A DNA stretch of 44,632 nt from a virus. The stretch is from UHGV virus genome UHGV-0179607. One strand, written 5' to 3'. Position 1 is the first letter of the stretch; the number at the start of each line of letters is the position of its first letter. The translations under genes were made by a program, and so were the position numbers. Below, piece after piece: positions 12,703 to 38,950 of this stretch. Under the pieces are notes generated by a model. It was not told where the DNA came from. It ran no database searches and was given only the letters and a program-made list of their open reading frames with translations.

Positions 12703-12706
12703 CGGA

Positions 12707-18522: not shown

Positions 18523-18565
18523 CGTCATGTCTCCCAAAAATGGCGGGACAAGCCCGCCGTATTAA

Positions 18566-18739: not shown

Positions 18740-18779
18740 CTCTAAAATCCTCGATATGGCTAACCGGCACACTATACCG

Positions 18780-19058: not shown

Positions 19059-19246
19059 TTGGTCTGCAACTCCACGTTACGCAGACGGAGGTCTACCGGT
19101 ATATCCGATCGCCCGGTTAGCGCCAGCGCCAGGTTTTCAGGCGTGACAAGTGCCGTTATGGTCTTGCCGCGTTCCAGTCTAATGACAATTCGAATCTCGT
19201 CATTGTCCGTCGCGCCAGCGCGCATTATGCTCATTTCTGCTTTCAT
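19055..19246 (-). CDS. hypothetical protein
   Basis: 63 aa from ATG 19246 with AGGAA SD placed 4 nt after the polymerase stop. Confidence 0.35.
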   Translation of the reverse strand: MKAEMSIMRAGATDNDEIRIVIRLERGKTITALVTPENLALALTGRSDIPVDLRLRNVELQTK

Positions 19247-19250
19247 AATC

Positions 19251-21542
19251 TTATTTCCTGTATCTGTACATAATGTCGCCTTCCGCGGCAAGCGGGAAGC
19301 CTTTCGCCCAAACAGGCAGGTCGCACATCAGCGCGCATAGCTCCTCGGTCGTGTAGTCGTCAGTATCCGGAACTTCGGTGATCAATTCATCGTGCACTGA
19401 CAGGACGATCTCATAGCCAGCAGCCTCAACGCCGGGCATGGACCACGCGAGGATATCGCGACACAGCGCCTGTACGATGTTTTCCGTCAGTTTGCCGCCG
19501 TAGGTATACTGGAAGCCCCACTGGCGCGTCGTCTGATTCTCGCCCTGGTATTTGATGCGGGTGCTGGTGCGCTTCTTGCCGGTGTCTTCGTCGATCTCGG
19601 TCGTGACAGACAGCGCGATGCCGGGGTAGCTCATGATGCGCCCTGACGGCAACTCAATTTTAAGCCACCACCCCGCCGCGTTCGGGTCGTCGCGCTCCTC
19701 GTCGAAGGTCGGGTCATGCTTCGCCTTCGTTCGAACAATTTTGAGCGCTTTCTTACCATCCGGGCGAACGTTCGCGCCAGCCCAGTATGCTTTGCCCGGA
19801 TTGCGGATTGCGCACAACACCGCGTCCTCAAGCTCTGCCCAAAAGGCTACCGTCTTCGGGTGGGCCTCACGCCACATACGTTTGATCGCGTCACACGTCA
19901 ACCACACGTTTTTCGGCAGTATGTAAGTTGGGCGCTCGTCTTTCTTGCCAGGCTTCGGCGGGCGCTTAGCTTCGTTAATGCGGGCGTATTCATAGCCCCG
20001 TTTCGCCGCTGCCCAAATATGATCGGGGAATGTGCCTTTCATGACGTCCGCCATCGCATACAGGTCGAGGCCCAGGTTTTTCGCGAACTGCAAGAATGCC
20101 GCCACGCCACCACCATAGCCCAGGCCCAATTCGCACGCCTTACCAATCTGGCGTAAGTCTTTGCGGTTGGCTTTGATGTATTCCGGGTCGAGGCCAAACA
20201 TCTTACCGGCAGTTTCACAATAGATATCGCGACCCGCCCTAAACACCATTAGCGCGGTTTTCTCACCAGCGATCCAGGCAAGCCCGCGACCTTCCACGTT
20301 GGAATAGTCCGCTACGACAAACTTCTTGCCCTTAGCCGGAATAATGCACCCGCGAACGGTCGAGGCCGTTAACTTCGATATGTCATACGCCCAGTGTGCG
20401 GTCCCGCGTAACAGGGAGTTGATGCCGTTGGTAAGCATGTGCGACCGCACCCAAAACGCGACGTCGCTCTCGCCTTCACGGCGCTTAATCTTCCCTTCGT
20501 GGTCGTCGCTATACTCGCCGCGTGCCAGGTTTTGCGGCTGGAAGCCTTTGCCAGCCCAGCGTAGCGTGCGTTTCGCCCCGCCATACTGGAGACACCCACG
20601 ACGGCGACCATCTGCGGATAAGCCATTAACGAGCGGATTGTACTTAGTCGATGCCGTTGATGACGCACCGAGGCGCATCTCTATAAGCACTTTGCCCTCG
20701 TCGGGGAAGTCCGGGTCTTCCAGCAGGTCGTTAAGTGTGGATTTCTGCGCGTTGTGGATTGTGAACGCAGGCGCGAGGTCGCGCAGCGCTGGCAGGAAGT
20801 CATTGCCTGTCAGCTTACCGCCGAAGCGCTCCCATGCTTCTTCCTTCAATTCTTCCTTATGCGCCTGCACCGCTTTGATCGCGGCGTTCGCCAGGTCAAC
20901 GTCCACATAGAAGCCGCGGTCGTTAATAATCTGGTCAATAAGCAGGATTTCATCTTCCTTCGGCGTGTTACCCCAGTCCGGTATGCGCCAGTAGACTTCA
21001 CGCATGGCAACAATATCCAGCGCGGCGTAGCGCAGGAATTTATCCCACTCCTCGGGGTGCGTCTCGCGCGTATAGCGGCGGATTTTGTAGGTCTTAGGGG
21101 TTGGCTTACAGAATCGTTTGATCAGCGCCTTGCCAGCCTTATCCTTCGCGTGCTCTGCATCAACACCCAACACCTGGCACTGCATATCGAGGCTACCCGG
21201 CAGCGCGTGGCGAAAGGCCATAATCATGGTATCTTCGATCTGGCCTACCGGCAGGTCAATGCCCCACTTCTCGCGAATAACCAGGCGGTCAAACAGGAGG
21301 CCGTTAGCCATAACGATTTTTGCTTTCTTGCGGGATACCCGGCGGAGCGCCTTGCGCAGTTCACGCGGCATTGTGGGGGATTCGGTGCAATCCCATGTCT
21401 GCACGCGGCCCTCGTCGATGGCGTATGTGCAAATCATAATCTCGGTAGTTGGGTGTTCCGCGTAGGCGTATGCGCCCACTTTCTTCAGATCCACCCCGCT
21501 AAATGTCTCGGTATCGAGAAAAAGTCGTTCGAAGTCTTTCAT
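19251..21542 (-). CDS. DNA polymerase, family A, with N-terminal 3'-5' exonuclease domain
   Basis: Exo I-like FLDTETFS; Pol A motif A DYSNVEGR; motif B RQIGKACELGLGYGGG; motif C LSVHDELITEV; 763 aa. Confidence 0.9.
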   Translation of the reverse strand: MKDFERLFLDTETFSGVDLKKVGAYAYAEHPTTEIMICTYAIDEGRVQTWDCTESPTMPRELRKALRRVSRKKAKIVMANGLLFDRLVIREKWGIDLPVGQIEDTMIMAFRHALPGSLDMQCQVLGVDAEHAKDKAGKALIKRFCKPTPKTYKIRRYTRETHPEEWDKFLRYAALDIVAMREVYWRIPDWGNTPKEDEILLIDQIINDRGFYVDVDLANAAIKAVQAHKEELKEEAWERFGGKLTGNDFLPALRDLAPAFTIHNAQKSTLNDLLEDPDFPDEGKVLIEMRLGASSTASTKYNPLVNGLSADGRRRGCLQYGGAKRTLRWAGKGFQPQNLARGEYSDDHEGKIKRREGESDVAFWVRSHMLTNGINSLLRGTAHWAYDISKLTASTVRGCIIPAKGKKFVVADYSNVEGRGLAWIAGEKTALMVFRAGRDIYCETAGKMFGLDPEYIKANRKDLRQIGKACELGLGYGGGVAAFLQFAKNLGLDLYAMADVMKGTFPDHIWAAAKRGYEYARINEAKRPPKPGKKDERPTYILPKNVWLTCDAIKRMWREAHPKTVAFWAELEDAVLCAIRNPGKAYWAGANVRPDGKKALKIVRTKAKHDPTFDEERDDPNAAGWWLKIELPSGRIMSYPGIALSVTTEIDEDTGKKRTSTRIKYQGENQTTRQWGFQYTYGGKLTENIVQALCRDILAWSMPGVEAAGYEIVLSVHDELITEVPDTDDYTTEELCALMCDLPVWAKGFPLAAEGDIMYRYRK

Positions 21543-21709
21543 TGCTTAATCCTCACTACGGCGTCAGCGCTGCCGATCATAGAGAAGATACCGTCGGAAA
21601 GGGTTATCTCCTCGCCGTTGTTGCGAATCTCGGCAACGGTGAAATATTCCCCCAGCAATTTGGACCATACCTGCATTCCGACTTTTACTTCGCTGGCTTT
21701 AATGCGCAT
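21539..21709 (-). CDS. small hypothetical protein (not in ORF track)
   Basis: 56-aa ORF MRIKASEVKVGMQVW...; AGGA SD; stop overlaps the polymerase ATG (ATGA). Confidence 0.3.
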   Translation of the reverse strand: MRIKASEVKVGMQVWSKLLGEYFTVAEIRNNGEEITLSDGIFSMIGSADAVVRIKQ

Positions 21710-21723
21710 TTTTCATTGTCCTA

Positions 21724-21749
21724 TTAAAAAGCCCGCATTAAGCGGGCTT
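21724..21749 (-). terminator. minus-strand rho-independent terminator/attenuator after the SSB-like gene
   Basis: Stem AAGCCCGC / GCGGGCTT (loop TTAA) followed on the minus strand by TTTTTAAT. Confidence 0.45.
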
Positions 21750-21767
21750 GAATAGTGGGCCTTGCCC

Positions 21768-22547
21768 TTAACGGCGGCGACGTTTGCGTGGCGCTTCGTC
21801 TTCGTCGTCGTCCTCATCTTCGTCATCGCGTGGCTTACGACGTTTGCGAGGTTTTTCATCTTCCTCATCGTCGTCGTCATCGCGGCGCTTGGACTTTTTG
21901 GACTTACGCGGCTTATCATCTTCATCGTCATCACGACGTTTTGACTTCTTAGCCTTGCGCGGTGCTTCGTCTTCGTCGTCGTTGTCCAGGTCTTCATCGG
22001 AGCAAGAAGACCCGCCACCGCCGAAGGCTTCACCGTCATCCCGGAAGCGTAAACCCAGCAAGCCAGCGCCGAGTCCCTTGCCGTTGGTGTTGTTCCACGC
22101 CCAAATATCCAGGGACACGTTGCAATAGCAACCGGAATAGATTTCCTGGCCTTCGATCTCGTCGCCTTCTACGGTAAGACCTTGTTCAGTCTGCTTCTCG
22201 CCGAGTGACGTTTGGATGTTTGGCTGTTTGAACGATTTGGCGTTGATGTACAACATGCCTTCGAACTCTTCGGTTACTTCATCGCGCTCGTCGCCGTCGC
22301 GAACTGCGCATTCCTTAGAATCCTGGGCGTAGTGGCGGTCCATCCACTTATCGGCATTCTTCTCGGATTTCAGCTTGTCGGTGAGCACTGCTCGCGCTGC
22401 CGCTTCCACTTTGTCCACCTGCGGATCTTCTTTATCAAGAAGAATCACGGCGCGGTATGCCGGTTTTTGTCCATCCTGTTTAGGGGTATCACGTTCCCAA
22501 ATTTTCAGGAAACATACGCGCACATTTTTCAGGTTGACTTTAGCCAT
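21768..22547 (-). CDS. single-stranded DNA-binding protein-like (T7 gp2.5-type) with long charged repeat tail
   Basis: N-terminus MAKVNLKNVRVCFLKIWE and FGGGG followed by an acidic stretch resemble gp2.5-like phage SSBs; C-terminal ~90 aa are tandem acidic/basic repeats (DDEDE.PRK.KKSKRRDDD); GAGGA SD at ATG 22547. Confidence 0.45.
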   Translation of the reverse strand: MAKVNLKNVRVCFLKIWERDTPKQDGQKPAYRAVILLDKEDPQVDKVEAAARAVLTDKLKSEKNADKWMDRHYAQDSKECAVRDGDERDEVTEEFEGMLYINAKSFKQPNIQTSLGEKQTEQGLTVEGDEIEGQEIYSGCYCNVSLDIWAWNNTNGKGLGAGLLGLRFRDDGEAFGGGGSSCSDEDLDNDDEDEAPRKAKKSKRRDDDEDDKPRKSKKSKRRDDDDDEEDEKPRKRRKPRDDEDEDDDEDEAPRKRRRR

Positions 22548-22637
22548 TTTCCAATTCCTCATTTTCACATGTATCGGGGTTATTGGAAGCCACCCCGTTC
22601 GGCTTGGTTGCTAATCTACTTGGTTGCGCCTAAGCGG

Positions 22638-22880
22638 TCAAGCATTTTCATTAAAAAGATTTCGGGTAACGTAGTTGGTGGCGTTCTCGATCCAGCTTAA
22701 CGGCGGTCGGTCGATGTTCTTCTCCACCCAGCCGACGGCAGCGTCGCTATAGCCGTCGTCAAGCCAGCGGGTCGGATGGCGAATCATCCACGCCACCATT
22801 AGCACGCCTTGCACGCAATGCAGGATAAAGCCCAGCGCGCCGAGCAAAAACATCAATAAGATTGCAAATACTTTATTCAT
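22638..22880 (-). CDS. small membrane protein (hypothetical)
   Basis: 80 aa from ATG 22880 with GAGGA SD; two hydrophobic segments (AILLMFLLGALGFIL, GVLMVAWMI). Confidence 0.4.
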   Translation of the reverse strand: MNKVFAILLMFLLGALGFILHCVQGVLMVAWMIRHPTRWLDDGYSDAAVGWVEKNIDRPPLSWIENATNYVTRNLFNENA

Positions 22881-24306
22881 CACTTAAGTCCTCGTCGGTA
22901 GCTTCGGACCACGCGGGGCGCGGGTCGTCGATTGGGGCTAATACCGGTTTAGCCGGTGCGCGCGTGATTTTATCACACAGCTTCGCCCACACTTTTGGTT
23001 TTTCGTCCTTCAATACCTTCTCGGCATCCGTAGGGCTGAGCAATGTTTCTTTGTACATCACATCGCGCTTGATCCGGGCCTTCGTGAAGATTTCAATAAC
23101 TTCGCTCTCGTCCGCCCACTTACGGATCCCTTCCTTACCGGCAACCATCTTGAGGCCCAGCGATTCACCATCACCCGCCATTACAGCCTTAAATACCGCG
23201 GACTCGATCGCTTTGATGTGCTGGCGCATTGCGTCCAGACCCTCATAAGCCTTGCGCAGTTCCGCAGCGCTCATAGCGCCAGGGGCCGCTTCTTTCTTAC
23301 CGCGCTTCGCACGTCGTGCCGCCTTCCTGGCTTCGCGGGCCATATTGCGGTCATGGTTGGCGCATTCTTCCTCTGTCGCAATACTCACGTCGTCGCCCAG
23401 GTCTTCGTCGGTTGCCGTTGGGGGTGTCATCGTGTCGATTGCGGCCTTAGCGCGGGCACTACACTGATCCGCAAATCGGCACCACTGGCACGCATCAACG
23501 CTGGGGCGGAAGTCTGCGCGGGTAAGCCCCTTCTTGCCTCGGGAATACGCCTCCAGTGCGGCAATAGCGCGCTTGGATGCAAACTTCGCGAATATCTCCA
23601 GAGCTTCTACCGAAATATCCCACTCCGACGCCCCACCGCAATACGGCTGGAAGATAACCAGGCGAACGGTCGTAATGTCGTACATAGTTTGCAGTTTGCG
23701 CAGCAGGCCGAGCGCGTACAACATAAGCTGTTTGTTCTCTTTCGCCTCGACCTTATGCCGCCCGGTCTTCAGGTCGCCAACAATCAGCATGTACGTTCCA
23801 TCGGTCTTTTTCATGACCATGACCATATCGGCAGTACCGAACGTTTTAATCCTGTTGCCGTCGATCTCGTAGCCTGAGTGAAGGACGCGGGTCAGATCGG
23901 CGCGCATCTCAAGCTGGATAAACTCCGCCACTTCGATGAGCGGTCGCCAGTGGTCGATGTACGCGTCGCACTGTTTCACCATGTCGTCGTTGACCAGTAC
24001 GCCGCCTTTCGGTGCTTTCGGGTGTGCCTTTACTGGCCCCTTGCCTTCGTTCTCGACGTAGCACCCTTTATACGTCTTCGCGGTTATCAGCTTCTCACCG
24101 GCGATAATGCGGTTTAGCACCACCTCCGATACGGTGTGCATACTCGTACCGTTAATCGCGGCTTGCCCGGATTCGTTCGGGATATCTTTTTCTACCACCA
24201 GGGCGGCGGGGCAACCCATCCATTTTTTAGCACCGGATGGCCCGAGTAATGAGTGTTCCGTATTGCTGCCGGATTGCGTCTTACGTTTTGGTTTAATCGC
24301 CATCAT
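22873..24306 (-). CDS. PD-(D/E)XK family exonuclease, Cas4/RecB-like with C-terminal Cys cluster
   Basis: Nuclease core GDLKTG...EAKENKQLMLYALGL and C-terminal CQWCRFADQC cysteine cluster typical of Cas4/RecB-type Fe-S nucleases; 477 aa. Confidence 0.6.
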   Translation of the reverse strand: MMAIKPKRKTQSGSNTEHSLLGPSGAKKWMGCPAALVVEKDIPNESGQAAINGTSMHTVSEVVLNRIIAGEKLITAKTYKGCYVENEGKGPVKAHPKAPKGGVLVNDDMVKQCDAYIDHWRPLIEVAEFIQLEMRADLTRVLHSGYEIDGNRIKTFGTADMVMVMKKTDGTYMLIVGDLKTGRHKVEAKENKQLMLYALGLLRKLQTMYDITTVRLVIFQPYCGGASEWDISVEALEIFAKFASKRAIAALEAYSRGKKGLTRADFRPSVDACQWCRFADQCSARAKAAIDTMTPPTATDEDLGDDVSIATEEECANHDRNMAREARKAARRAKRGKKEAAPGAMSAAELRKAYEGLDAMRQHIKAIESAVFKAVMAGDGESLGLKMVAGKEGIRKWADESEVIEIFTKARIKRDVMYKETLLSPTDAEKVLKDEKPKVWAKLCDKITRAPAKPVLAPIDDPRPAWSEATDEDLSDE

Positions 24307-24491
24307 TCCACCCGTGTAAATTGAGCAATGTAATAGTCATGTTCAACATTGGCCCGCTTAGCGGCATTGTTCATGGTAGCCGCCAGTCCTCGGGCTTGCA
24401 TCCAGCAGCAATTCCAGTTTTGATTCATAACAATTTCCGGTTGCTCGTCGCCGGTAATACGGCAACGAAATAAAACAAAGAATATAGCCAT
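24303..24491 (-). CDS. hypothetical protein
   Basis: 62 aa; ATG at 24491; overlaps the exonuclease start region. Confidence 0.3.
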   Translation of the reverse strand: MAIFFVLFRCRITGDEQPEIVMNQNWNCCWMQARGLAATMNNAAKRANVEHDYYIAQFTRVE

Positions 24492-24743
24492 TTATTTTGT
24501 CTCCCAGCGGTCAATTGTTTTTGCTTCGGATGCAACCGCGAAGCGAACATATTCCAGATTGGAATCCGCCCAAATATAAAAGTCGGGGTTAGTAAAGGTG
24601 GTGCGCTTAATTTGCGCGGGTGTGTTACGGCGTTTATCTATTACGGCAACGCGGGATTGAAAGCTGCCGATGCGTTCGAATAGCCAATAGTACGGGCGCT
24701 GGTCGCGGGAATCCACCGCCTCGATTAGCGTGAAGCGTGCCAT
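24492..24743 (-). CDS. hypothetical protein
   Basis: 83 aa; GAGGA SD upstream of ATG 24743. Confidence 0.4.
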   Translation of the reverse strand: MARFTLIEAVDSRDQRPYYWLFERIGSFQSRVAVIDKRRNTPAQIKRTTFTNPDFYIWADSNLEYVRFAVASEAKTIDRWETK

Positions 24744-24754
24744 TGTCTCGTCCT

Positions 24755-24783
24755 CTAAAAATAGGCCCGCAGATTAGCGGGCC
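24755..24783 (-). terminator. minus-strand attenuator/terminator after the first early gene
   Basis: Perfect 7-bp stem GGCCCGC / GCGGGCC, loop AGATTA, followed on the minus strand by TATTTTT. Confidence 0.45.
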
Positions 24784-24791
24784 GGATAATA

Positions 24792-25310
24792 TTAATCTTC
24801 CAGTTCGAAATAAGTTTCGACGATTTCTTTAAGATCTTTGTGGAAGTCTTCGACGTCGTCATCTTCCAGCTTGGCGATTGATTTGATCTCGAACGATTCC
24901 AGCAGGTCGTCGAATTCGTCGTTGGCATCGTCGTCGTCACCACCAGCGATAATAGCGGCATACTGTTTGATCTCGTCGCGCATCTCTGCCAGCGGATCGG
25001 CATCTTTCTTGCCTTTGCCTTTCGCCGGTGCTTTTTTACCCTTCGCCGGTTTTTCGTCTTCGGCTTCTTCATCGTCGTCATCTTCTACGACTTCTTTTTT
25101 GGCCTTACCTTTAGCCGGTGCTTTTTTGGTTTTCGCCGGTTTTTCGTCTTCGGTTTCATCGTCGTCATCTTCTACGACTTCTTTTTTGGCCTTAGACGGC
25201 TTCTTGTCTCCCGGCTTACCAACGGCAGCGCCAACGGTTTCATAATGCTTAGCGATGGTTTCCAGTGCTACTACGCCGCGAGTAATCAGGTTTACGATTT
25301 GTTCAAACAT
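24792..25310 (-). CDS. acidic repeat protein, first gene of the leftward early operon
   Basis: 172 aa; two tandem ~20-aa repeats KKEVVEDDDDE..EDEKPAK.KKAPAKGK and a strongly acidic C-terminus; encoded by ~60-bp DNA tandem repeats at about 25030-25200; GGAG SD. Confidence 0.5.
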   Translation of the reverse strand: MFEQIVNLITRGVVALETIAKHYETVGAAVGKPGDKKPSKAKKEVVEDDDDETEDEKPAKTKKAPAKGKAKKEVVEDDDDEEAEDEKPAKGKKAPAKGKGKKDADPLAEMRDEIKQYAAIIAGGDDDDANDEFDDLLESFEIKSIAKLEDDDVEDFHKDLKEIVETYFELED

Positions 25311-25509
25311 GTTTTATATCTCCGATTGGTTAAGTTTAGGTGTCGACAATTAACTTCGTCGGTGGCCTTAACATATTGCCTGGTTACGCGTTCTCCCGTT
25401 CGGGTAGTGGACCAGGTTATATAATCACGGTTGGGAATCCTGACACTTCGATCCGGCCCCTGCGTTGCCCCTCTCCAGTTTGCGTCCTGCATCCTGTCGA
25501 CGGAGGGAA

Positions 25510-25538
25510 TATTAGATTGGTTGCAGAAGGGAGTCAAC
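25510..25538 (-). promoter_or_regulatory. leftward early promoter (sigma70-like)
   Basis: Minus strand TTGACT - 17 bp - TAATAT; the spacer carries GCAACCAA; about 190 nt upstream of the first early gene. Confidence 0.45.
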
Positions 25539-25548
25539 AACTAATTTC

Positions 25549-25587
25549 AAAAAAAAAAAAAGCGCCGAGGCAAAATGCAACGGCGCT
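25549..25587 (-). terminator. minus-strand rho-independent terminator with 13-nt U-tract
   Basis: Stem GCGCCG / CGGCGC with 13-nt loop, followed on the minus strand by 13 T; upstream of the leftward promoter, so possibly the 3' end of a short leftward transcript. Confidence 0.4.
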
Positions 25588-25617
25588 AACCAATAAGAGA
25601 CAATGAGACGGGAATTA

Positions 25618-25645
25618 TTATTACACGCGTGCGCGCCCGTTTCAA
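25618..25645 (-). promoter_or_regulatory. candidate minus-strand promoter for a short transcript ending at the 25549-25587 terminator
   Basis: Minus strand TTGAAA - 16 bp - TAATAA; would give a ~60-nt RNA. Confidence 0.25.
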
Positions 25646-25656
25646 TATCCAAAGGA

Positions 25657-25685
25657 TTTGACACCGTGCAGTTTTGGGTGTAGTT
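25657..25685 (+). promoter_or_regulatory. rightward early promoter (sigma70-like)
   Basis: Consensus -35 TTGACA, 17-bp spacer, -10 TAGTTT, about 35 nt upstream of the HTH gene. Confidence 0.5.
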
Positions 25686-25717
25686 TCGTTGGTCATTAAC
25701 CAACTGAGGGCAGAGCA

Positions 25718-26047
25718 ATGAATGTAAACGACGCAATCGAAATGTTAACGAAGACTGTTAGCAGTGAAACAAGCCGGTCATGGGCTTATACCGATGCCGT
25801 TGGGGCGGTGCTGTTTGAGGTCGAGCGCCTGCGCAGTGTAGAAAAAGAATTACGCGCCAGGCTGGAATTGCTCAACGGTACGGCGGCGAGCAAGCTGCAA
25901 AAACACAATGAGGAAATGGAAGAATACAAAAAGCAGGTTATCCGTTTGCGCGCCGAGGGAAAGTCATGGGCGATGATCGCGGAGTTGACAGGGATTAACC
26001 AGAGCACCGTGCGCTCCTGGGTACGCAATAACAAAACTTCGAAGTAA
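25718..26047 (+). CDS. helix-turn-helix DNA-binding protein
   Basis: 109 aa; C-terminal KSWAMIAELTGINQSTVRSWV is a typical HTH; first gene of the rightward operon. Confidence 0.5.
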   Translation: MNVNDAIEMLTKTVSSETSRSWAYTDAVGAVLFEVERLRSVEKELRARLELLNGTAASKLQKHNEEMEEYKKQVIRLRAEGKSWAMIAELTGINQSTVRSWVRNNKTSK

Positions 26048-26057
26048 GGCCACGGCA

Positions 26058-28322
26058 ATGAGCTTAATTAAATTCGCTGTTACAAGACCCGCTAAAAAAG
26101 GCGAAAAAGCCAGGGCGGAAAACTTCCAGATGACCACCGATGAATTTTTCGAATTTATCAAAGATGCGAAAGAAATCTCCTCGGTGCATATCAACAAGAC
26201 GGAAGATAAAGCCGAGTATGCGCGCCGCAAGCGTAAGGCCGACGGCATCGTGGCGTATACCAGTGACGGATTGCGTCGTAAGACCAGTGCGGTGGACCGC
26301 TCGATCCTGTTCTTCGATATTGACCGTACCGACACCCGCACCCTACGCCGCTGCCGTAAGGCGTTCATTGACGCGGGGCTGGAACACGTATTTCACACCA
26401 CAACCGGCGACCGTCACCCACTGAAAGGCGGCACGCGTTGCGCTCGATTCCTGGTGCTCACTGACAAGCCTGTACCGGCTGAAGACCTGGGCCGCGTCCA
26501 GTATGCACTATTACACCAACTGGGTCTGTCAGATGTGGACTTCGACGATTGCACGAAAGACACAAACCGCCTGATGTACCTGCCACACCAGCAGTCTGTT
26601 ATTAAGTGCCACTACGGCAAGCGCGCCCGCGTCCGTCGTCTGCTTCGCCTGGCGGATAAGTTGGGCGCGGAAAAAGAGGAAGTACGCCGCGAGCTTACCC
26701 AGGGCGACGACGCAGTGGCAGACGGCATTCTGGACTGGTGCTTCCAGGCAGGATTCGAGGAGTTATCTTCCGGGCGGGGCTATGAAGTGCCGTGCCCTAA
26801 CGAACATCTACACAGCGGCGAAGGGTCCACCGCTATTATGGTTAAGGACGGCGAGATCCGTTTCAAGTGCATGCACACAGGCAACGAGTGTTGCTCGGAA
26901 CTGAATAGACACCAGCACCTGGCGCTGCGTCTTATCGGGATCCCGGACCACCTGAACGTCGAGCCACACAATATGTCCCGTAAGCAAATCGCCGCCATCC
27001 TTCCGGGGCTGGACGACGAGGAAGTCGAATCCTTATATGAACATATTGTTGATGCGGTTGGCGACGGCGAAGAATACGGCGTGTGCACCGATGCGGATCT
27101 GGATAACGAGCCGGTTGCGCTGTTCAGTAAGCACGACCCGATTATCGAGGGGTTGATTAACTTTAAATCGACCTGGTACATGGCGGGTGAGTCGAATATA
27201 GGTAAGTCTTTCTACGTGCTGGGCCAGATGGGCGCGGTTGCTGCCGGTATTCCGTTTGGCGGTGCGAAGGTCGTCCAGTCTCATTGCTTCTATTTCGACG
27301 CGGAAGGTGGCGAAGCCTCTAACCAGCGTAAAGAAGCATTGCAGATTAAATATGAGCACGACCTGGACAAGCTGCACATTATCGATCTGCAGTCACGCGG
27401 CTGGGATATCACCAGCAAATCGGGCTTGCGCGAAGTTATCAGCTTTATCAACCGCACCGCTAACGGCGAACCGGTTGGCCTGGTGGCGTTCGACTCACTC
27501 AACCAGACTGTTGCGTTGCGGTCCGCTGATGCTAAACCGTTCGACGAGAACAACGCCAGCGATATGGGTGAAGTGGTCAAAGCGCTGAAGGCCATCGCGG
27601 AAAATACAGGTGGTAGTGCGGGCGTCATCCACCACCCGGCTAAAGGTGCAAACGGCAGCAGAACGCCACGCGGGTCCGGCGCGCTGCATGGTGCTGTCGA
27701 TTCTGCGTTCTTCCTGGAACAGCCGGACGACAACCAGCCCGGACAATTGAACCTGTATCACGAAAAGTCACGTAACGGCATCAAGCAAGCGCCGCGCGGC
27801 TTCGTCCTGCTCAAGTGCAAGGTGAAGGTGGATCTCCGCAAGTCAGAAGCGTTCGAGGCGCACCAGTCCACCAGCACCGGGCCAGACTTCGGCGACGTGG
27901 TTGCCGGATGGGACGTCAAGCCGATTGCCTCCACGCCACGCGACGAGACTCTCTACCTCGTACCGGTTGCCCTGGCACCTTTCGCTATTGAACAGGCGAA
28001 GGCGGCGGGCAAGGCCGCGGTTAAGGAAGAGAACACCGCCGGACCGCGCAACGAAAAAGAGAAAGTGCTTTATGCGGCACTGGAAAAACTGATGGAAGAT
28101 AACCCGGACCATACTGGATTCAGTAAATCGGCAATCGTCCGCCAGGCGGGACTCGCAAAAGGGGGCACTTCGACGAAGGCAATCGACGATATGGTGGAGC
28201 GCGGGGTAATAGGTTTTTATACAGATCCGCACACCGGGGCCATCTATGGGTCTTCTAATTTGGTCATCAAATCGGATATCCCTATCACGCTTTCCGCGAC
28301 CGATGACGATTTAAAAGATTAA
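26058..28322 (+). CDS. primase-polymerase (AEP-like) / P-loop replicative helicase fusion protein
   Basis: N-terminal ILFFDIDRTD resembles the AEP/prim-pol DxD motif; central Cys/His cluster (CPNEHLHSG...CMHTGNECC); P-loop MAGESNIGKSF of RecA/DnaB-like (AAA_25-type) helicases; 754 aa. Confidence 0.55.
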   Translation: MSLIKFAVTRPAKKGEKARAENFQMTTDEFFEFIKDAKEISSVHINKTEDKAEYARRKRKADGIVAYTSDGLRRKTSAVDRSILFFDIDRTDTRTLRRCRKAFIDAGLEHVFHTTTGDRHPLKGGTRCARFLVLTDKPVPAEDLGRVQYALLHQLGLSDVDFDDCTKDTNRLMYLPHQQSVIKCHYGKRARVRRLLRLADKLGAEKEEVRRELTQGDDAVADGILDWCFQAGFEELSSGRGYEVPCPNEHLHSGEGSTAIMVKDGEIRFKCMHTGNECCSELNRHQHLALRLIGIPDHLNVEPHNMSRKQIAAILPGLDDEEVESLYEHIVDAVGDGEEYGVCTDADLDNEPVALFSKHDPIIEGLINFKSTWYMAGESNIGKSFYVLGQMGAVAAGIPFGGAKVVQSHCFYFDAEGGEASNQRKEALQIKYEHDLDKLHIIDLQSRGWDITSKSGLREVISFINRTANGEPVGLVAFDSLNQTVALRSADAKPFDENNASDMGEVVKALKAIAENTGGSAGVIHHPAKGANGSRTPRGSGALHGAVDSAFFLEQPDDNQPGQLNLYHEKSRNGIKQAPRGFVLLKCKVKVDLRKSEAFEAHQSTSTGPDFGDVVAGWDVKPIASTPRDETLYLVPVALAPFAIEQAKAAGKAAVKEENTAGPRNEKEKVLYAALEKLMEDNPDHTGFSKSAIVRQAGLAKGGTSTKAIDDMVERGVIGFYTDPHTGAIYGSSNLVIKSDIPITLSATDDDLKD

Positions 28323-28397
28323 ATTCTGCGCGCATTGGTTGCCGATATGGGAATTCCCATATCGGTAGATGATTAAATTCTGCGCGCATTGGTTGCC
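28317..28397. repeat. 27-bp perfect direct repeat flanking a 24-bp perfect palindrome
   Basis: GATTAAATTCTGCGCGCATTGGTTGCC at 28317-28343 and 28371-28397; between them CCGATATGGGAATTCCCATATCGG (28342-28365); copy 1 contains the primase stop codon. Confidence 0.7.
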
Positions 28398-28482
28398 ATT
28401 TTGCGTGCTTTTAGTCGGTCGTATTGGTTGCCGTGTAGTGTAAATATAGTGAATAGTTATGCAATAAAACTGCATAAAGTAA

Positions 28483-28639
28483 GCGGGACAAAAAGCGGGA
28501 CAGACCAGGGGCGGGACAAAGCGGGACAGCACCCCTGTCCCGCCCCGGATGACGCGGCCTGGCGAGGAGCGGGACAGCGGGACAGCACCCCAGTCTTTCA
28601 GACTAGACGGGGGGTCTGGCACCCCCCTCGTCTGAGACT
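28483..28639. repeat. iteron array (GCGGGACA x6-7, one inverted) plus ~48-bp conserved-stem hairpin; copy 1 of a duplicated element
   Basis: GCGGGACA at 28483, 28495, 28511, 28521, 28569, 28578 and inverted at 28536; large imperfect inverted repeat 28591-28640; same architecture at the window ends. Confidence 0.7.
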
Positions 28640-28799
28640 GCATAAAATCCAGGATTGCATAATACACGGCAACAAGATGCGAATTGCGGTCGTCGATGAA
28701 CTAGGCAACCAATGCGAGTTGCAGAATGGTGGGTGAAAAATGCAGTTTGCAGTTGCAGCAGATAGCGATCAACTTTTTCATACGCGTGATTAATATTGG

Positions 28800-28828
28800 T
28801 TGCACCCACTCCAGCACCCTGCTATATT
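28800..28828 (+). promoter_or_regulatory. sigma70-like promoter with conserved leader
   Basis: TTGCAC - 17 bp - TATATT followed by GGTTGCACACCAACA; the 22-mer 28822-28843 recurs inverted at 38936-38957. Confidence 0.4.
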
Positions 28829-28858
28829 GGTTGCACACCAACATGAGGACTGAACAAA

Positions 28859-29335
28859 ATGAAATTTCCAGTAATCATCAAAGACGGTAAATCAACTATC
28901 ACTTTCACCGGCAACGACCACGGCACTTACGAGAGCGGCGCGGCTTGCATGTCCACCCTGGAAGATATGATGATTCGTGTTAATTCCGGTAAAGCCTCAA
29001 TTATTACCCCCCTCGCGGAGAGTACCAAAATGAAAGCATTAATCTGGAATTACACAATGGCGGTGGCGAAGCTGTATGAAGCGAAGCACACAGACGGCAA
29101 CGCAGACGACGCGCGCCAGGTTGTCATCCTGGCCCAGCAGGGAATCAGGCACGCGTTCGACGATATGTTTGCCAGCCTGGACGAACTGGAACCGCTGCGC
29201 GTGGCAATCTGCGAATATGCGATGGCTTTTGCCCGCGAGCGCCTGGCGTATCGCTTCGGGATCGGCGAGACGGCAGTGACAAACGTCGCCCGGATTAAAG
29301 CCCAGCGCGAGCTATTCGACCAGCTTGCGAAATAA
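28859..29335 (+). CDS. hypothetical protein
   Basis: 158 aa; GAGGA SD; no motif recognised. Confidence 0.45.
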   Translation: MKFPVIIKDGKSTITFTGNDHGTYESGAACMSTLEDMMIRVNSGKASIITPLAESTKMKALIWNYTMAVAKLYEAKHTDGNADDARQVVILAQQGIRHAFDDMFASLDELEPLRVAICEYAMAFARERLAYRFGIGETAVTNVARIKAQRELFDQLAK

Positions 29336-29344
29336 GGGGCCAAA

Positions 29345-29614
29345 ATGGACCGCAGACGCGCGAAACAGCTTTCGTGGCATATCCCATTGCATTGCATACG
29401 AATATGGGCTAAGAATGCGAATGAGGGCGATTCTGTGTTCTGGTGCTACCGCGACGATGTGAGGCCATTAACGCAGACTCGGTACTTGCACCAGTTCGCA
29501 GCAAAGCACGGATTCTATGTGCGGACTTCCTTGCAACCAATGGGTGTTCGTATTACATTACGCCGGAAGCCTGCCATTGAGCGGGCAGGAAAACACTGGA
29601 GACTGAGCAAATGA
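29345..29614 (+). CDS. hypothetical protein
   Basis: 89 aa, basic; ATG 9 nt after the upstream stop. Confidence 0.4.
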   Translation: MDRRRAKQLSWHIPLHCIRIWAKNANEGDSVFWCYRDDVRPLTQTRYLHQFAAKHGFYVRTSLQPMGVRITLRRKPAIERAGKHWRLSK

Positions 29615-29775
29615 ACAAGCAACCTGAACGCTGGCGGAGTAAGGCCACGCGACTGACTTACTTCGTGACAGAAGAAGCAAACGGCAACGTGACTATTTCA
29701 CACCCTAAGTGTGGTACTCGCCGCACTATCTCGCGCCTCACATTAGTTCGTAACTACAGGAGATTGACAGAATGA
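29611..29775 (+). CDS. small hypothetical protein (not in ORF track)
   Basis: 54-aa ORF MNKQPERWRSKATRL... with ATGA overlaps at both ends. Confidence 0.3.
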   Translation: MNKQPERWRSKATRLTYFVTEEANGNVTISHPKCGTRRTISRLTLVRNYRRLTE

Positions 29776-30311
29776 AAATGATATTCCGCAATAAGCATAA
29801 TGGGAGATTCCTTACCCCGATTGAAGTGCTGCCGAACTATGTTCGCATGTACCATGAAGCCAGCGACCGCGTATTCTGGTACAAGAAAGCCACCCTGCAT
29901 GAGCATTTGCAGGTAGTGCACCATGACGTCCGCGTAGGTGATGTGCTGCGTGATGTGCGTGACGGGTCGCTGTTAGAGGTGCTCCGCGTGAGCACGGACG
30001 GCGTTATGCTGCGCAGTGGTAAAACACAACGCGGCGTTCTGCTCACGGGCCTGGTGAATTACGCCCGCATAGGCCGTAACTATAAACTTAAGCGCCCTGG
30101 TGTAGTGGCGAAAGAGATCACCCGTACGGAACACCCATATACCAAATACGACGAGCGCAAGGTGCGCGAGCATATCGACAACGCCAGGGCGCAAGCTGCC
30201 GCCATGATTCAGGCTGGCAACGATGCCAAACGATTTGGGATTGGTGTTATTCTGGTCTACCCCGACGGCAGCATGAAGTCTACCGATCCGCGCGGGGTCA
30301 TTCAGAAATGA
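29772..30311 (+). CDS. hypothetical protein
   Basis: 179 aa; translationally coupled to neighbours. Confidence 0.45.
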   Translation: MKMIFRNKHNGRFLTPIEVLPNYVRMYHEASDRVFWYKKATLHEHLQVVHHDVRVGDVLRDVRDGSLLEVLRVSTDGVMLRSGKTQRGVLLTGLVNYARIGRNYKLKRPGVVAKEITRTEHPYTKYDERKVREHIDNARAQAAAMIQAGNDAKRFGIGVILVYPDGSMKSTDPRGVIQK

Positions 30312-30432
30312 GTGCGACGATCCGGGATATGCTTCAGCATAACCGCTTTGAGATAGGCGGTCGGGTATTTCGCAATTACTTCGTGGCGCGTGCATGGGCG
30401 CGCCATATTGGAAAACCGGAAGGGGCAATTCG

Positions 30433-30720
30433 ATGCTACACGATTTGATATATTGGTTTGGGTTGGGGTGCGCGACACTCTTTGCTATGGTGCTGGCGCT
30501 GTTGGTGTGGGTCTTCCTGATTTGGCCCGCTGTGGAAGCTGCCAGCATTACCCGCATGACGTTCCAGATATACAAGCGCCGTGGAATCACGGAGCACCCG
30601 ACCAGGTTGCGCATGTGGTGGCTGTGGTATCGCGATATGATAGGGGGCCGGATGTTCGAGGCCGTCCGATCGGACGGGTGGGAGTGGAAAGGCGTCGGCA
30701 AGTGGTCCATTTTCGATTAA
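30433..30720 (+). CDS. small membrane protein (hypothetical)
   Basis: 95 aa from ATG 30433; hydrophobic stretch LIYWFGLGCATLFAMVLALLVWVFLIWPAV; a 46-aa ORF (30308-30448) overlaps its start. Confidence 0.35.
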   Translation: MLHDLIYWFGLGCATLFAMVLALLVWVFLIWPAVEAASITRMTFQIYKRRGITEHPTRLRMWWLWYRDMIGGRMFEAVRSDGWEWKGVGKWSIFD

Positions 30721-30738
30721 TTATGCAAGCGTGATATA

Positions 30739-30772
30739 GTCCCAGTGAGATAAAACTTACTGGGACTTTTTT
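30739..30772 (+). terminator. rho-independent terminator/attenuator abutting the holin start codon
   Basis: Stem GTCCCAGT / ACTGGGAC (loop 12 nt) followed by TTTTTT ending immediately before ATG 30773. Confidence 0.5.
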
Positions 30773-31063
30773 ATGGATAAGCTAAACGAGTGGTTATTCG
30801 CCCTTGCGTGTCTTGCTGGTGGCTTCGTAGGCGCACGCATTCATGGCGAGGCAACGAAAGGGCCGTTGAACTTCGTTTTATATATCGTGGTTGGCTTCCT
30901 GTGTGCCATATTTGGTGCGCCAGCTATTGCGGAGTGGTCTGGTTTGTCGGGTGAGCGTACTGTCGCCGGATTGGGCTTCGTAACTGCCATCTTCTGGATG
31001 CCAATAGCTGACCGGATCCGGGAGACAATTGCGACGCTACACCTTCCGGGGGGCGCAAAATGA
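30773..31063 (+). CDS. holin-like membrane protein
   Basis: 96 aa with three hydrophobic segments; immediately upstream of the endolysin gene. Confidence 0.5.
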   Translation: MDKLNEWLFALACLAGGFVGARIHGEATKGPLNFVLYIVVGFLCAIFGAPAIAEWSGLSGERTVAGLGFVTAIFWMPIADRIRETIATLHLPGGAK

Positions 31064-31798: not shown

Positions 31799-32212
31799 AT
31801 GTTAAAAAGCATTCTTGATCATAACGCCGACGCACTTGCTGCACTGGCTAAAACCGAAGACCCTGGCGCACGCGCTATCATCGCGGACACTATCAGCCAT
31901 GCAGGCGTCTTTGACGCGAAGCTGCCGAGTGTGCCGGAAAGAAAGCCCGTGGCAAGTGCGACCGTAACCATCACCCCAGTGTCAGCCGCAGTTGGTGCGA
32001 AGGCCACCGCTTCTGTTGCCGTCCTGCCATCTGACGCAACTAACAAGGCCGGGAAGTGGGTGTCCGCAAACCCTGACTGCGCGGCAGTCAACCAGACTAC
32101 CGGCGAAATCACAGCAAAATCGGAGGGTGGCGTCCACATCTTTTGGGTGGCATCCGATGGAGGCGGGGCGATGGCGTCCGCCATCTTCACCGTAACGGGA
32201 GCAGGAAAATAA
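31799..32212 (+). CDS. Ig-like (Big_2-type) domain protein
   Basis: 137 aa; C-terminal ATVTITP...LPSDATNK...VNQTTGEITA...VTG resembles bacterial Ig-like group 2 domains; followed by a terminator. Confidence 0.45.
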   Translation: MLKSILDHNADALAALAKTEDPGARAIIADTISHAGVFDAKLPSVPERKPVASATVTITPVSAAVGAKATASVAVLPSDATNKAGKWVSANPDCAAVNQTTGEITAKSEGGVHIFWVASDGGGAMASAIFTVTGAGK

Positions 32213-32219
32213 AACCACA

Positions 32220-32244
32220 AGCCCGGTTAATTCCGGGCTTTTTA
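32220..32244 (+). terminator. rho-independent terminator
   Basis: Stem AGCCCGG / CCGGGCT, loop TTAATT, followed by TTTTT. Confidence 0.6.
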
Positions 32245-32307
32245 TTGCTTGACTTGCAACCAACTATCAGACCATACTGCTACCAATCGACGAGAGGAGT
32301 ATTACAC

Positions 32308-32394
32308 TATGGCACGTAATGATATTTTGGTGTTGGCAATATGGTCCACTGCGGCATTCATTGGTATGGTTATTTGTGAGGTGATAAATGGCTG
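32308..32394 (+). CDS. 28-aa hydrophobic peptide (not in ORF track)
   Basis: MARNDILVLAIWSTAAFIGMVICEVING; strong GAGGAG SD; preceded by promoter-like TTGACT-18-CATACT carrying TGCAACCAA; a 24-aa ORF follows at 32386-32460. Confidence 0.3.
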
Positions 32395-32463
32395 AGTTAA
32401 TCCGCCTTATGGCGCGAGATGAACACGTAAAAGTCACATTCTACGATGGTGGGAAGTGTTGAG

Positions 32464-32676
32464 ATGATTAGACAAGTATTCATGAGCACGCAGGCCACAC
32501 GCCTGAAAGAGCTACGCAAACAACTCGAAGGCTTGCGCCGATTCGAACGAACGGCAACGGCAATAGGCATGTCTATCAGCGAACGGATTGAGATACTATC
32601 GCAAATACGCTACACAGAAGGCGCGATAAGAGAAGTACAAAGCATGTTAGCCCGATACTACGGGCGCGACGTTTAA
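32464..32676 (+). CDS. hypothetical protein
   Basis: 70 aa from ATG 32464 (MIRQVFMSTQ...); helical, charged. Confidence 0.35.
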   Translation: MIRQVFMSTQATRLKELRKQLEGLRRFERTATAIGMSISERIEILSQIRYTEGAIREVQSMLARYYGRDV

Positions 32677-32771
32677 CCGCACAGCCTGCCGATTTGGTGG
32701 GCTTTTTTGTGCCTGTTATAATCCCCCTTAGATGGCAGGGCCGTCTCCTATGTTGCCGATGGTCGGCGCAT

Positions 32772-37670: not shown

Positions 37671-37782
37671 CCCGTCCGCAGACCCCGACGAGGATTTGAT
37701 GATTGACGTGAAAAATATGGAATGCGGGGCGAAGCTAAGGGCGCAGGTGCTGGAGTTGCAGCAAATAATTAAGGGGCCGTAA
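37552..37782 (+). CDS. o-spanin (Rz1-like outer-membrane lipoprotein)
   Basis: ATG 37552 with AAGAGG SD; signal peptide MLRALTALIVVLMLSAC with lipobox LSAC; Pro-rich mature part; overlaps the 3' part of the i-spanin gene in another frame. Confidence 0.55.
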   Translation: MLRALTALIVVLMLSACGSSNAPLMPLTESALRPPCKFDSPSADPDEDLMIDVKNMECGAKLRAQVLELQQIIKGP

Positions 37783-37794
37783 TAGCCCCTTTTT
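37772..37794 (+). terminator. rho-independent terminator between convergent genes
   Basis: Stem AGGGGC / GCCCCT, loop CGTAATA, followed by TTTT; includes the o-spanin stop codon. Confidence 0.55.
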
Positions 37795-37796: not shown

Positions 37797-38561
37797 TTAG
37801 CGCGGAATGCCGCAAATCTCGTTGAGTGTTTTCACGTCCAGCGCCACCGCCGTGGATTTTGGCTTGTCCGGGTATGGGATGAATTGCTCAACTTCAGGCC
37901 ATGCCTTAATCAGCTTCTTGTCAGTATTGTGCAGGTCCAGCACACCGGTAACGGTGAGTTTGAACGCGTCATACTTAGCACGCAACTCACGGCGGGCCTT
38001 ATCGTTACGGTCCAGGCGCTTGCAGAAGTCATGGTCCGCAGGGTAGACTATGCGACCGCGTGGCTTATATATCGGCAGCGCTTTCCCGTCCTCGTCCACT
38101 TCGCACACTGAAGCTAACATAATTTCCTCATACCCCGGTACGATATCGCCGAGATCGGGAGATAGCGTATTCATGTATTTATATTCCCAGTATCCTCGAT
38201 GTACTCGGTATTGGTATCCGTCGCCGCTCAATGACAAGGTGCGAACATTTCCGCCCGCGTTGATTTCGAAAGTGGCGTCGTAAACGCTGCCGATACCTTT
38301 CGGGCGGTCGGTGTTATAACTATACGTCGCCTTGTTGGTGTATACACAGACGCCGTACATCTGCGACGGGTCATCGCCGATTGCTTCAATTCGCGCGAGT
38401 AGCTCGGCGAACGTGCGAATGCCTTCCGGCATACAGTCAAGCGTAATGGCATAAGCCAGGTCGCGCGAGTCCATCATGATTTGTTTGGCTTCGGTTGCGA
38501 TTTCGTGGTCGCGCAGGATGTTAGCCAGAATCTGATTTTTAATGTCTTTAGTCAGTCTCAT
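37797..38561 (-). CDS. hypothetical protein (reverse-oriented cassette gene 2)
   Basis: 254 aa; GAGGA SD preceded by a GGGGC-GAAA-GCCCC hairpin; opposite orientation to the flanking morphogenesis genes; no motif recognised. Confidence 0.5.
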   Translation of the reverse strand: MRLTKDIKNQILANILRDHEIATEAKQIMMDSRDLAYAITLDCMPEGIRTFAELLARIEAIGDDPSQMYGVCVYTNKATYSYNTDRPKGIGSVYDATFEINAGGNVRTLSLSGDGYQYRVHRGYWEYKYMNTLSPDLGDIVPGYEEIMLASVCEVDEDGKALPIYKPRGRIVYPADHDFCKRLDRNDKARRELRAKYDAFKLTVTGVLDLHNTDKKLIKAWPEVEQFIPYPDKPKSTAVALDVKTLNEICGIPR

Positions 38562-38915: not shown

Positions 38916-38950
38916 TTTGTTTTCCTTCATATCTCTGTTGGTGTGCAACC

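Follow-up and report, generated by a model that had tools for sequence, protein, structure and literature searches.

A 22-bp inverted pair and a recurrent 8- to 9-bp box at predicted promoters of a Dhillonvirus-type phage

Gene context of the 22-bp pair

The window, i.e. the whole stretch of 44,632 nt analysed here, represents a Dhillonvirus-type phage (an HK578-like virulent siphophage of E. coli), and its gene context was read by comparison with annotated relatives. The 22-mer CTATATTGGTTGCACACCAACA lies on the plus strand at 28822-28843, 540 nt beyond the helicase-primase gene (26058-28322). Its exact reverse complement occupies 38936-38957, i.e. the 22-mer recurs there on the minus strand. 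No third copy was found in the window with up to three mismatches allowed, and none arose by chance in 100 dinucleotide shuffles; the exact inverted pair at two distant loci, to which a previous sequence-only reading had pointed, is thus borne out. The ATG codons at 28859 (plus strand) and 38915 (minus strand) are located 16 and 21 nt past copies 1 and 2, respectively, where that reading had correctly placed them, and they are preceded by the Shine-Dalgarno sequences GAGGA and GAAGGA, respectively. The identity between the two loci stops at the edges of the 22-mer itself, their flanks being unrelated to each other, and both loci match approximately 160 Dhillonvirus records at 85-96% identity.

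The promoters predicted at the two loci are referred to as P1 (copy 1) and P2 (copy 2). The gene set that follows P1 (28859-30767, plus strand) consists of six small genes of unknown function (28859-30720) and a strong terminator (30738-30767) located just before the holin gene. The sequence-only reading had taken this set for an early/middle gene block, but it is instead a short, terminator-bounded set of variable small genes, the first of which encodes MKFPVI..., MRALIWNY..., or MKTEMV... among the relatives. The set that follows P2 (37771-38915, minus strand) is reversed inside the structural operon, between the spanin genes and the scaffold gene, and comprises a 104-aa ORF (38601-38915), a second gene (37797-38561) in whose product a domain screen identified an Nmad5 domain, and a two-way hairpin (37771-37791). 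Its first gene also varies (MTNMTV..., MIKVNY..., MPTLIK..., or Nmad5 directly), as does the number of genes, i.e. one in Bas84 and Oekolampad and two or three elsewhere. Having their own terminators and variable first genes, the P1 and P2 units look like autonomous accessory cassettes of a moron-like kind, placed between conserved genes and headed by predicted promoters. The Nmad5 protein of Dhillonvirus has been reported as the trigger of the Tmn defence system (PMC11846954).

Predicted promoters P1 and P2 and the genome-wide box

P1 is predicted to run rightward (28796-28843) and P2 leftward (38980-38936). At P1, box A (TTGGTTGCAC, 28796-28805, plus strand), in which the box itself spans -39 to -32, ends in the six bases of a -35-like hexamer, TTGCAC (28800-28805), and this hexamer is located 17 nt before the -10-like TATATT (28823-28828). 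At P2, the -35-like TTGCAT (38975-38980, minus strand) precedes TATATT (38956 to 38951) by 18 nt, and box A (TTGGTTGCA, 38958-38966, minus strand) lies in the spacer, abutting the -10 hexamer (-22 to -14). At both loci, the 22-mer is composed of the same three overlapping pieces, namely the TATATT hexamer, the 9-bp box TTGGTTGCA (box B, -8 to +1), and an inverted half-site, ACCAA, five bases on. Box B and this half-site together form a putative composite operator, TTGGTTGCACACCAA, of the form TTGGT-N5-ACCAA, which occupies 28827-28841 (plus strand) at P1 and runs from 38952 to 38938 at P2, where the -10 hexamer and operator jointly cover 38938-38956 (minus strand). This anatomy supports the earlier proposal that, in two transcription units, the 22-mer covers both a -10-like hexamer and the region of the predicted start.

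Under a lax promoter rule (-35 hexamer starting with TTG and matching at 3/6 positions or more, spacer of 16-18 nt, -10 hexamer with A2 and T6 and at least 4/6 matches, and a total of at least 8/12), TTGCAC-17-TATATT at P1 and TTGCAT-18-TATATT at P2 each score 8/12, with TTG, A2, and T6 in place. A strict sigma-70 scan (at least 4/6 per hexamer and 9/12 overall) called neither P1 nor P2 nor the promoter of the helix-turn-helix (HTH) gene described below; P1 and P2 escaped it because TTGCAC and TTGCAT match TTGACA at only 3/6 positions, so their promoter status rests on the laxer rule together with conservation. In 15 distinct P1 sequences ascertained via protein homology, box A is invariant, and both boxes and ACCAAC are invariant or nearly so, whereas the spacer between the -35 and -10 hexamers varies. 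The same footprint was observed in six P2 sequences collected in the same manner, with divergence starting directly after ACCAACA. We infer that the 22-mer is the core of two sigma-70-type promoters.

In most relatives, the -10 hexamer reads TAGATT at P1 and TATATT at P2, and only some genomes, this one among them, have identity over exactly 22 nt; what the two loci generally have in common is therefore the 17-mer ATTGGTTGCACACCAAC, not the 22-mer. The -10 allele (TATATT or TAGATT) differs between P1 and P2 in four of the five complete genomes, which argues against a recent duplication and against gene conversion between the two promoters, the latter being rejected on this ground. Duplication by recombination, which the sequence-only reading had suggested as an alternative, is not supported as a recent event: the identity ends at the 22-mer, the copies are ancient and present in all relatives, and the -10 variant shows no co-variation between the loci.

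The 8-bp core of the box, TTGGTTGC, is present in 20 copies in the window (1.4 expected) and is the second most over-represented 8-mer; the 9-mer TTGGTTGCA is present in 12 copies. Sixteen of the 20 copies touch non-coding DNA, which makes up only 5.6% of the window (binomial probability, ~4e-17), and two further copies are located in the last codons of genes adjoining an intergenic gap. A logo built from 103 box copies in five genomes reads A-TTGGTTGC-A, with A at position -1 in 74 copies (T in none) and A at position +9 in 57. Four complete relatives (Bas84, Oekolampad, CHD5UKE2, and jat) contain 20-21 boxes at syntenic places with differing flanks, and in the more divergent relatives L061, L063, L065, L080, and L081, the box is the top or near-top 8-mer and is similarly placed. 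When IMG/VR was scanned for tandem boxes, real enrichment was seen only in Dhillonvirus-like contigs, the other matches being coding repeats in unrelated viruses, and no boxes were found in nine related phages whose helicase-primases are 37-45% identical. The box is most likely the docking site of a sequence-specific regulatory protein that acts genome-wide. As a control element, it is of an ordinary type, but one that the literature searched does not describe in these phages: that search yielded only primers and unrelated work, with no account of the Dhillonvirus transcriptional programme, no transcript or binding data for any Dhillonvirus, and no description of the motif (TTGGTTGCA, ATTGGTTGC).

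Exact boxes are carried by 11 promoter-like sites found with the lax rule, at discrete offsets and in both orientations; no more than three of them (32249, 25537, and 22641) are also called by the strict scan. At five sites, a forward box occupies -39 to -32, exactly over the -35 position, and supplies TTGCA as the -35, giving a hexamer of only 3-4/6. A box in either orientation occupies -22 to -14 (starting at -22/-21) and abuts the -10 hexamer at five sites, and a box in either orientation extends from -8/-5 to +2 at four. These positions within the core promoter are conserved against variable flanks. Most box promoters carry two boxes each, i.e. at -39 and -8 in P1 (28800), -22 and -8 in P2 (38980), -39 and -22 at 15857, and, in inverted orientation, -21 and -5 at 22641 and -29 and -6 at 32249. 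Every box promoter retains usable -35 and -10 hexamers, spaced 16-18 nt apart.

Elsewhere in the window, boxes accompany the leftward TTGCAA-17-AATACT (box at -39, 10267-10274, minus strand, with a degenerate inverted box at 10229-10236), the leftward TTGCAA-18-TATCTT (inverted box pair TGCAACCAA-ccta-TTGGTTGCA, 13921-13940), TTGCAT-17-TATATT (two direct boxes at -39 and -22, 15837-15861, minus strand), and TTGCTG-17-TATAGT (box at -39, 18796-18803, minus strand, with a degenerate second box, TTGGTCGC, at -27). The two boxes at 22604-22627 (plus strand) are inverted with respect to the leftward TTGACC-17-TAGATT, and a single inverted box (25517-25524, plus strand) lies at -22 in the spacer of the leftward TTGACT-17-TAATAT (25537 to 25509). 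Upstream of the terminase genes, the rightward TTGACT-18-CATACT (32249) carries an inverted box and an inverted degenerate box, TTGGTAGC (32256-32286, minus strand).

There are exactly three TTGGT-N5-ACCAA palindromes in the window, against 0.02 expected, and TTGGT and ACCAA were not found at any other spacing from 0 to 12, N3 included. Besides P1 and P2, the palindrome is located in the promoter-like site of the HTH gene (25658-25703, plus strand), which consists of TTGACA (25658-25663), a 17-nt spacer, TAGTTT (25681-25686), and, two bases further on, the third palindrome, TTGGTCATTAACCAA (25689-25703). This third copy covers -4 to +11, and those of P1 and P2 cover -8 to +7. Two-fold symmetry of a kind that would suit a dimeric protein is seen at these three sites; the other ~17 boxes are asymmetric and form direct or inverted pairs at varied spacings. 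The same three sites and no more are present in Bas84, Oekolampad, and jat (set L003, L004, L060), and in CHD5UKE2, where a divergent 149-aa version takes the place of the HTH gene, there are only the two palindromes of P1 and P2. Relatives for the assessment of conservation were drawn via protein homology and hence without bias from the motif. All 14 HTH promoters in this sample retain the palindrome, one of them with a single-base change. Of the 14 sequences covering P1, 12 retain its palindrome, and in two of these 12, the five-base centre carries a substitution (TTGGTCGCACACCAA and TTGGTTGCATACCAA). The remaining two comprise a single-base change in the right arm (TTGGTTGCACCCCAA) and a member of a divergent group without the palindrome; divergent relatives lack the right arm, and a few close relatives have mutations in it.

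The architecture common to P1 and P2 is kept across the genus, so the co-regulation of the two loci proposed by the sequence-only reading is a reasonable inference. It is not, however, a private link between them: the TTGGTTGC core belongs to a 20-copy genome-wide box, and the palindromic subset has a third member at the HTH gene promoter.

Boxes also occur in a non-coding, origin-like region directly after the helicase-primase gene (28331-28716). Four extended boxes, CGCATTGGTTGCC, of which three are direct (28331, 28385, and 28420) and one is inverted (28704-28716), bracket a set of GCGGGACA iterons (28481-28590). With four CGCATTGGTTGCC and five to seven GCGGGACA repeats, the interval 28322-28790 constitutes an iteron-type array beside a putative initiator gene, and the same layout was found in L003, L004, L059, L060, L061, L063, and L222. 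The region is likely a replication origin, and its boxes are as compatible with a function in replication as with one in transcription.

Several known types of site were compared with the box by eye. A sigma-54 promoter was rejected since the GG-N10-GC spacing is absent, and neither the DnaA box, the NtrC site, the marbox, nor the TTGC-N6-TTGC repeat of lambda CII fits. The CytR octamer GTTGCATT matches most boxes at 6/8 positions and leaves the invariant TTGG unexplained.

Candidate binding proteins and competing readings

Among approximately 30 small ORFs screened against Pfam and PHROGs, the only DNA-binding-domain match was that of a 109-aa protein encoded directly upstream of the helicase-primase gene (25718-26047, plus strand), which matched HTH_23, HTH_28, Sigma70_r4_2, and phrog_9366 (annotated 'transposase'). 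In its AF2 model (pLDDT 86), one short helix and one of 58 residues are followed by an HTH at the C-terminus; weak matches to the vimentin coiled coil in a PDB sequence search, which was otherwise uninformative, fit a dimerising helix. In a Foldseek search, the model matched only locally, through its HTH, with LuxR/GerE-type proteins and the HTHs of transposases (E values above 0.5). The family is tiny and confined to these phages, with three full-length clusters among 1.84 billion representatives. Its N-terminus is variable, and its last ~60 residues, the HTH segment included, are almost invariant, matching the invariance of the DNA site. The protein is 57-62% identical in four of the divergent relatives (L061, L063, L065, and L080) and still more distant in L081, and the family is absent, as is the box, from the nine related phages mentioned above.

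Two observations loosen the tie between this protein and the box. In the contig IMGVR_UViG_2700989012_000001 (L222/L129), TTGGTTGC is the top 8-mer and 8 of its 11 copies are clustered just after the helicase-primase gene; no 109-aa homologue was found in the 23 kb available of this contig, and the syntenic position holds an unrelated gene for a 69-aa protein with an XRE-type HTH. In the most distant homologue (P0025 of L081), the recognition helix is changed and the box is unchanged, so that co-variation does not tie the protein to its site and the co-variation test is non-discriminating. In view of the L222 lineage and P0025, the 109-aa protein is rated as the leading candidate only, with a chance somewhat short of even that it is the protein that binds the box.

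The reading that we favour, and hold to be a slightly better than even bet, is that operator-bearing sigma-70 promoters head the two terminator-bounded variable accessory cassettes and are repressed together with the HTH gene. One DNA-binding protein would read the ~20 boxes (around -39, -22, and -8 to -5), usually two per promoter. At P1 and P2, the box A-TTGGTTGC-A would begin inside the -10 hexamer and cover the predicted start site (-8 to +1), with the inverted TTGGT half-site (ACCAA) five bases on, and at -22 or over -8 to +7, the bound protein would stand in the way of RNA polymerase. Such occlusion would make repression the most likely sign of regulation, either as early shut-off or as negative feedback; the boxes at the promoter of the likely late genes (32249) are a poorer fit to simple early shut-off. 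The 109-aa HTH protein may be the repressor of the box promoters. Given the palindrome at its own promoter, the HTH gene would then be autoregulated and P1 and P2 co-regulated with it, and the three promoters with an inverted half-site over the start site would form the subset under the tightest control. Judging from the four extended boxes that flank the GCGGGACA iterons, this protein or a partner may have a further role at a replication origin.

The origin-like region lends itself to another reading, which we consider unlikely, in which the boxes are iteron-like sites of a replication initiator (the C-terminal domain of the helicase-primase or a partner), serve mainly at the origin beside the helicase-primase gene, and, through their promoter copies, couple transcription to initiator occupancy. 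Not only do the extended boxes bracket the iterons directly after the helicase-primase gene, but the clustering in the L222 lineage occurs in the same place and without a visible member of the 109-aa family in the available 23 kb. The C-terminal ~110 residues of the helicase-primase, with a helix-helix-strand-strand order, also differ between box-bearing and box-less phages. The L222 version of this domain is, however, only 20% identical to that of the window, and the box is the same in both; most boxes, moreover, are located at core promoter positions, not in the origin-like region. The domain has no Pfam or PDB match, a homologue search with it returned one fragment only, and its single-sequence AF2 model (pLDDT 39.5) is too poor for use.

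A host protein is an equally improbable reader of the boxes. In this case, the phage would exploit the sites of an enterobacterial DNA-binding protein, which would account for an 8-mer that stays invariant among phages with different candidate DNA-binding proteins or with none. In addition, the E. coli PdhR box, AATTGGTnnnACCAATT (PMC7660256), has identical half-sites, ATTGGT and ACCAA[T/C]. However, the centre of the phage palindrome is five bases long, and with three N5 sites and zero TTGGT-N3-ACCAA sites, the window does not show the N3 spacing of a PdhR/FadR-type GntR operator. Most sites are single asymmetric 8- to 9-mers whose conserved TGC lies outside the PdhR half-site. The restriction of real tandem-box enrichment to Dhillonvirus-like contigs in IMG/VR and the lack of boxes in nine related phages also argue against a host factor.

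More doubtful still is the reading in which the box protein is an activator or a polymerase-redirecting factor, in the manner of T4 MotA or phi29 p4, and the 22-mer marks positively controlled middle/late promoters. The five promoters with a box exactly over a poor -35 hexamer would suit such a factor, as would the match of the 109-aa protein's HTH to Sigma70_r4_2, and the P2 boxes are located 58-79 bp upstream of a divergent promoter-like TTGCGA-16-TAATAT of the scaffold gene (read by eye). Against this, the boxes point either way and vary in offset, with some in the spacer and others at -8 to +2, unlike the fixed contact of an activator or sigma-like factor, and all box promoters have usable -35 and -10 hexamers at 16-18 nt; a T4 MotA-type middle promoter was rejected on the same grounds. 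Workable hexamers at normal spacing, combined with boxes inside the polymerase footprint in either orientation, are the signature of occlusion, not of an activator or sigma-like contact.

It is very unlikely that the shared sequence works at the RNA level, controlling translation or stability from a common 5' leader (ACACCAACA...), or that it is a recombination scar or boundary without a regulatory role; the leader part of the promoter-leader named in the sequence-only reading is likewise not supported. Even though L081, in which box B is absent at P1, retains ACCAA(C/A)ATGAGGAC in its P1 leader, and P2 divergence among relatives starts exactly after ACCAACA, as it would at a cassette-exchange boundary, the whole window has no Rfam match, the three predicted leaders and the 22-mer fold no better than shuffles (leader z-scores of -0.96, +0.47, and +1.63), most of the conserved 17-mer is located upstream of the predicted start site, the conserved part being a DNA palindrome that straddles this site, the same box is present at many sites in both orientations, and the ancient identity is limited to 22 nt with no cassette gene seen swapped between P1 and P2.

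Significance and related systems

The favoured reading, i.e. joint repression of the cassette promoters and the HTH gene, describes a conceptually standard operator system, and its value is therefore practical rather than a matter of surprise. Dhillonviruses are common in phage-defence work, e.g. in the BASEL collection, with SECphi18, and in the Tmn and Avs2 studies. The box, present at almost every promoter region, and its three-site palindromic form would provide a concrete and cheaply testable regulon map that indicates which promoters drive the variable accessory cassettes, and conserved promoter-operator modules flanking exchangeable cassettes would also offer a handle for engineering. 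A farther-reaching version, to which we give little credence, is that one factor of the HTH/helicase-primase module runs both replication and transcription, marking the origin and nearly every promoter. If so, the firing of the origin would be coupled to global promoter control in a manner resembling DnaA or T-antigen, and the 22-mer would be the tightest operator, gating two hypervariable cassettes (Nmad5 included) and the module's own expression.

Lambda Cro at OR and OL is the textbook autoregulated small repressor with operators in early promoters, these operators being 17 bp long and two-fold symmetric. As in Cro-type systems, short sites overlap the -35, spacer, -10, and start of (here predicted) competent sigma-70 promoters, the same type of site is present at the candidate regulator's own promoter, and several promoters would be under the control of one factor. 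The phage boxes, which are known from sequence only, differ from Cro operators in being asymmetric 8- to 9-mers in either orientation, in numbering ~20 across the genome of a virulent phage, and in having as their candidate reader a long-helix-plus-HTH protein unrelated to Cro/CI.

DnaA boxes, the iterons of phage P4 alpha, and SV40 T-antigen sites are initiator sites that also regulate promoters. The phage box resembles these in being an asymmetric 9-mer that occurs in both orientations, clustered by a putative initiator gene as well as inside promoters, but it has no sequence similarity to them, and the Pfam and PDB searches with the C-terminal domain of the helicase-primase, encoded beside the putative origin, showed no DNA-binding domain of the DnaA or P4-alpha type. 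T4 MotA boxes occupy one position of middle promoters (about -30) in one orientation and replace the -35. Both are phage-specific 9-bp boxes present at many promoters, and the box described here overlaps the -35 region in several; it differs in its variable position and orientation and in the retention of -35-like hexamers. Besides its identical half-sites, ATTGGT and ACCAA, the PdhR box shares with the phage palindrome a repressor-like placement just downstream of the -10 hexamer, whereas its centre is three bases long instead of five, the phage consensus extends to TTGGTTGC-A, and most phage copies are without an inverted partner.

The cassettes themselves are comparable to morons, which Hendrix and colleagues reportedly described as autonomous promoter-gene-terminator units in tailed phages. 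The promoters predicted at P1 and P2 carry the phage's own regulatory box, unlike those of morons, and would not be independent of phage control; because the phage is virulent, the cassette genes are not lysogenic-conversion genes either. In organization, P2 with its one or two variable genes and hairpin, reversed inside the late structural operon, is a moron-like unit, and P1 with its variable small genes and strong terminator is a second one.

Origin-like region and a candidate small RNA

Directly 3' of the helicase-primase gene lies an origin-like non-coding region of 470 nt (28322-28790). This region contains CGCATTGGTTGCC in three direct copies and one inverted copy, and 5-7 GCGGGACA iterons that are flanked on both sides by the CGCATTGGTTGCC copies. 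Repeated TGCATAA motifs are also present, as are perfect hairpins, both at 28342-28365 and in the vicinity of 28596-28640; the same layout is kept in relatives.

A candidate small RNA of ~65 nt was identified on the minus strand between two divergent early promoter regions (25543-25645). Its promoter-like site, TTGAAA-17-AATAAT with a TG upstream, has the joint top score (10/12) among the promoter-like sites of 9900-28900, and is followed by a hairpin and T13 terminator (-16.4 kcal/mol, z -2.75). The pairing of the terminator hairpin is retained in two relatives, L077 and L081, despite their differing sequences, and a 15-mer upstream of the hairpin, CGTCTCATTGTCTCT, is conserved.

Signals at the lysis and head genes

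Within 30738-30773, a strong terminator consisting of a 12-bp stem and a T-run ends 6 nt upstream of the start codon of the holin gene, so that the lysis genes must rely on read-through, antitermination, or a promoter within the upstream gene. In the structural operon, inspection of 38988-39069 by eye revealed a plus-strand promoter-like site, TTGCGA-16-TAATAT, which would serve the scaffold and head genes. As judged in the same way, this site points away from P2, the leftward promoter-like site bearing one of the two identical 22-mers, such that the two form a divergent pair; it is overlapped by a conserved palindrome, TTATCAGCGATAA, and followed downstream by a hairpin, GCGGGTGGCCCGC. By the same inspection, it has no box (the conserved 8-9 base motif) of its own, the P2 boxes being located 58-79 bp upstream.

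Gene content, repeats, and over-represented 8-mers

A 1.1-kb gene annotated as phosphoesterase or 'DNA repair exonuclease' is present in the endolysin-terminase interval of Bas84, Oekolampad, and jat, and is absent from 31799-32700 of the window, where an ORF with a Big_2 domain (31799-32212) is found in its place, 3' of the endolysin gene. Gene 24792-25310 contains two copies, 87 nt apart (25074-25091 and 25161-25178), of an 18-nt hairpin with a T-rich tail (GTCGTCATCTTCTACGAC TTCTTTTTTG), which indicates an internal tandem duplication. In the jat record, a repeat region is annotated in gp19 at the matching position, beside the HTH gene.

Two other 8-mers, ACGGCAAC/GTTGCCGT and ACGGCAGC/GCTGCCGT (28 and 24 copies in the whole window, respectively), are over-represented as strongly as the box. 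Their copies are mostly intragenic and lean to the sense strand, and their excess may reflect codon or peptide bias. ACGGCAGC ranks first or second among 8-mers in most distant box-less relatives (among L214-L223).

Box copies inside genes and in a more distant phage

Two minus-strand boxes are intragenic, i.e. one at 29533 (within 29531-29560) inside gene 29345-29614 and one at 4810-4817 inside tail gene 4203-4943, and both are kept in all complete relatives. The former lies at -33 of a plus-strand promoter-like sequence, TTGCAA-17-TACATT, which may serve as an internal promoter. The same box, TTGGTTGC, is also found in a more distant phage, IMGVR_UViG_2700989012_000001 (L222 and L129), the helicase-primase of which is 46% identical. 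In this phage, eight copies are packed 3' of the helicase-primase gene, and a gene for a 69-aa XRE-type HTH protein occupies the slot of the Dhillonvirus 109-aa HTH gene.
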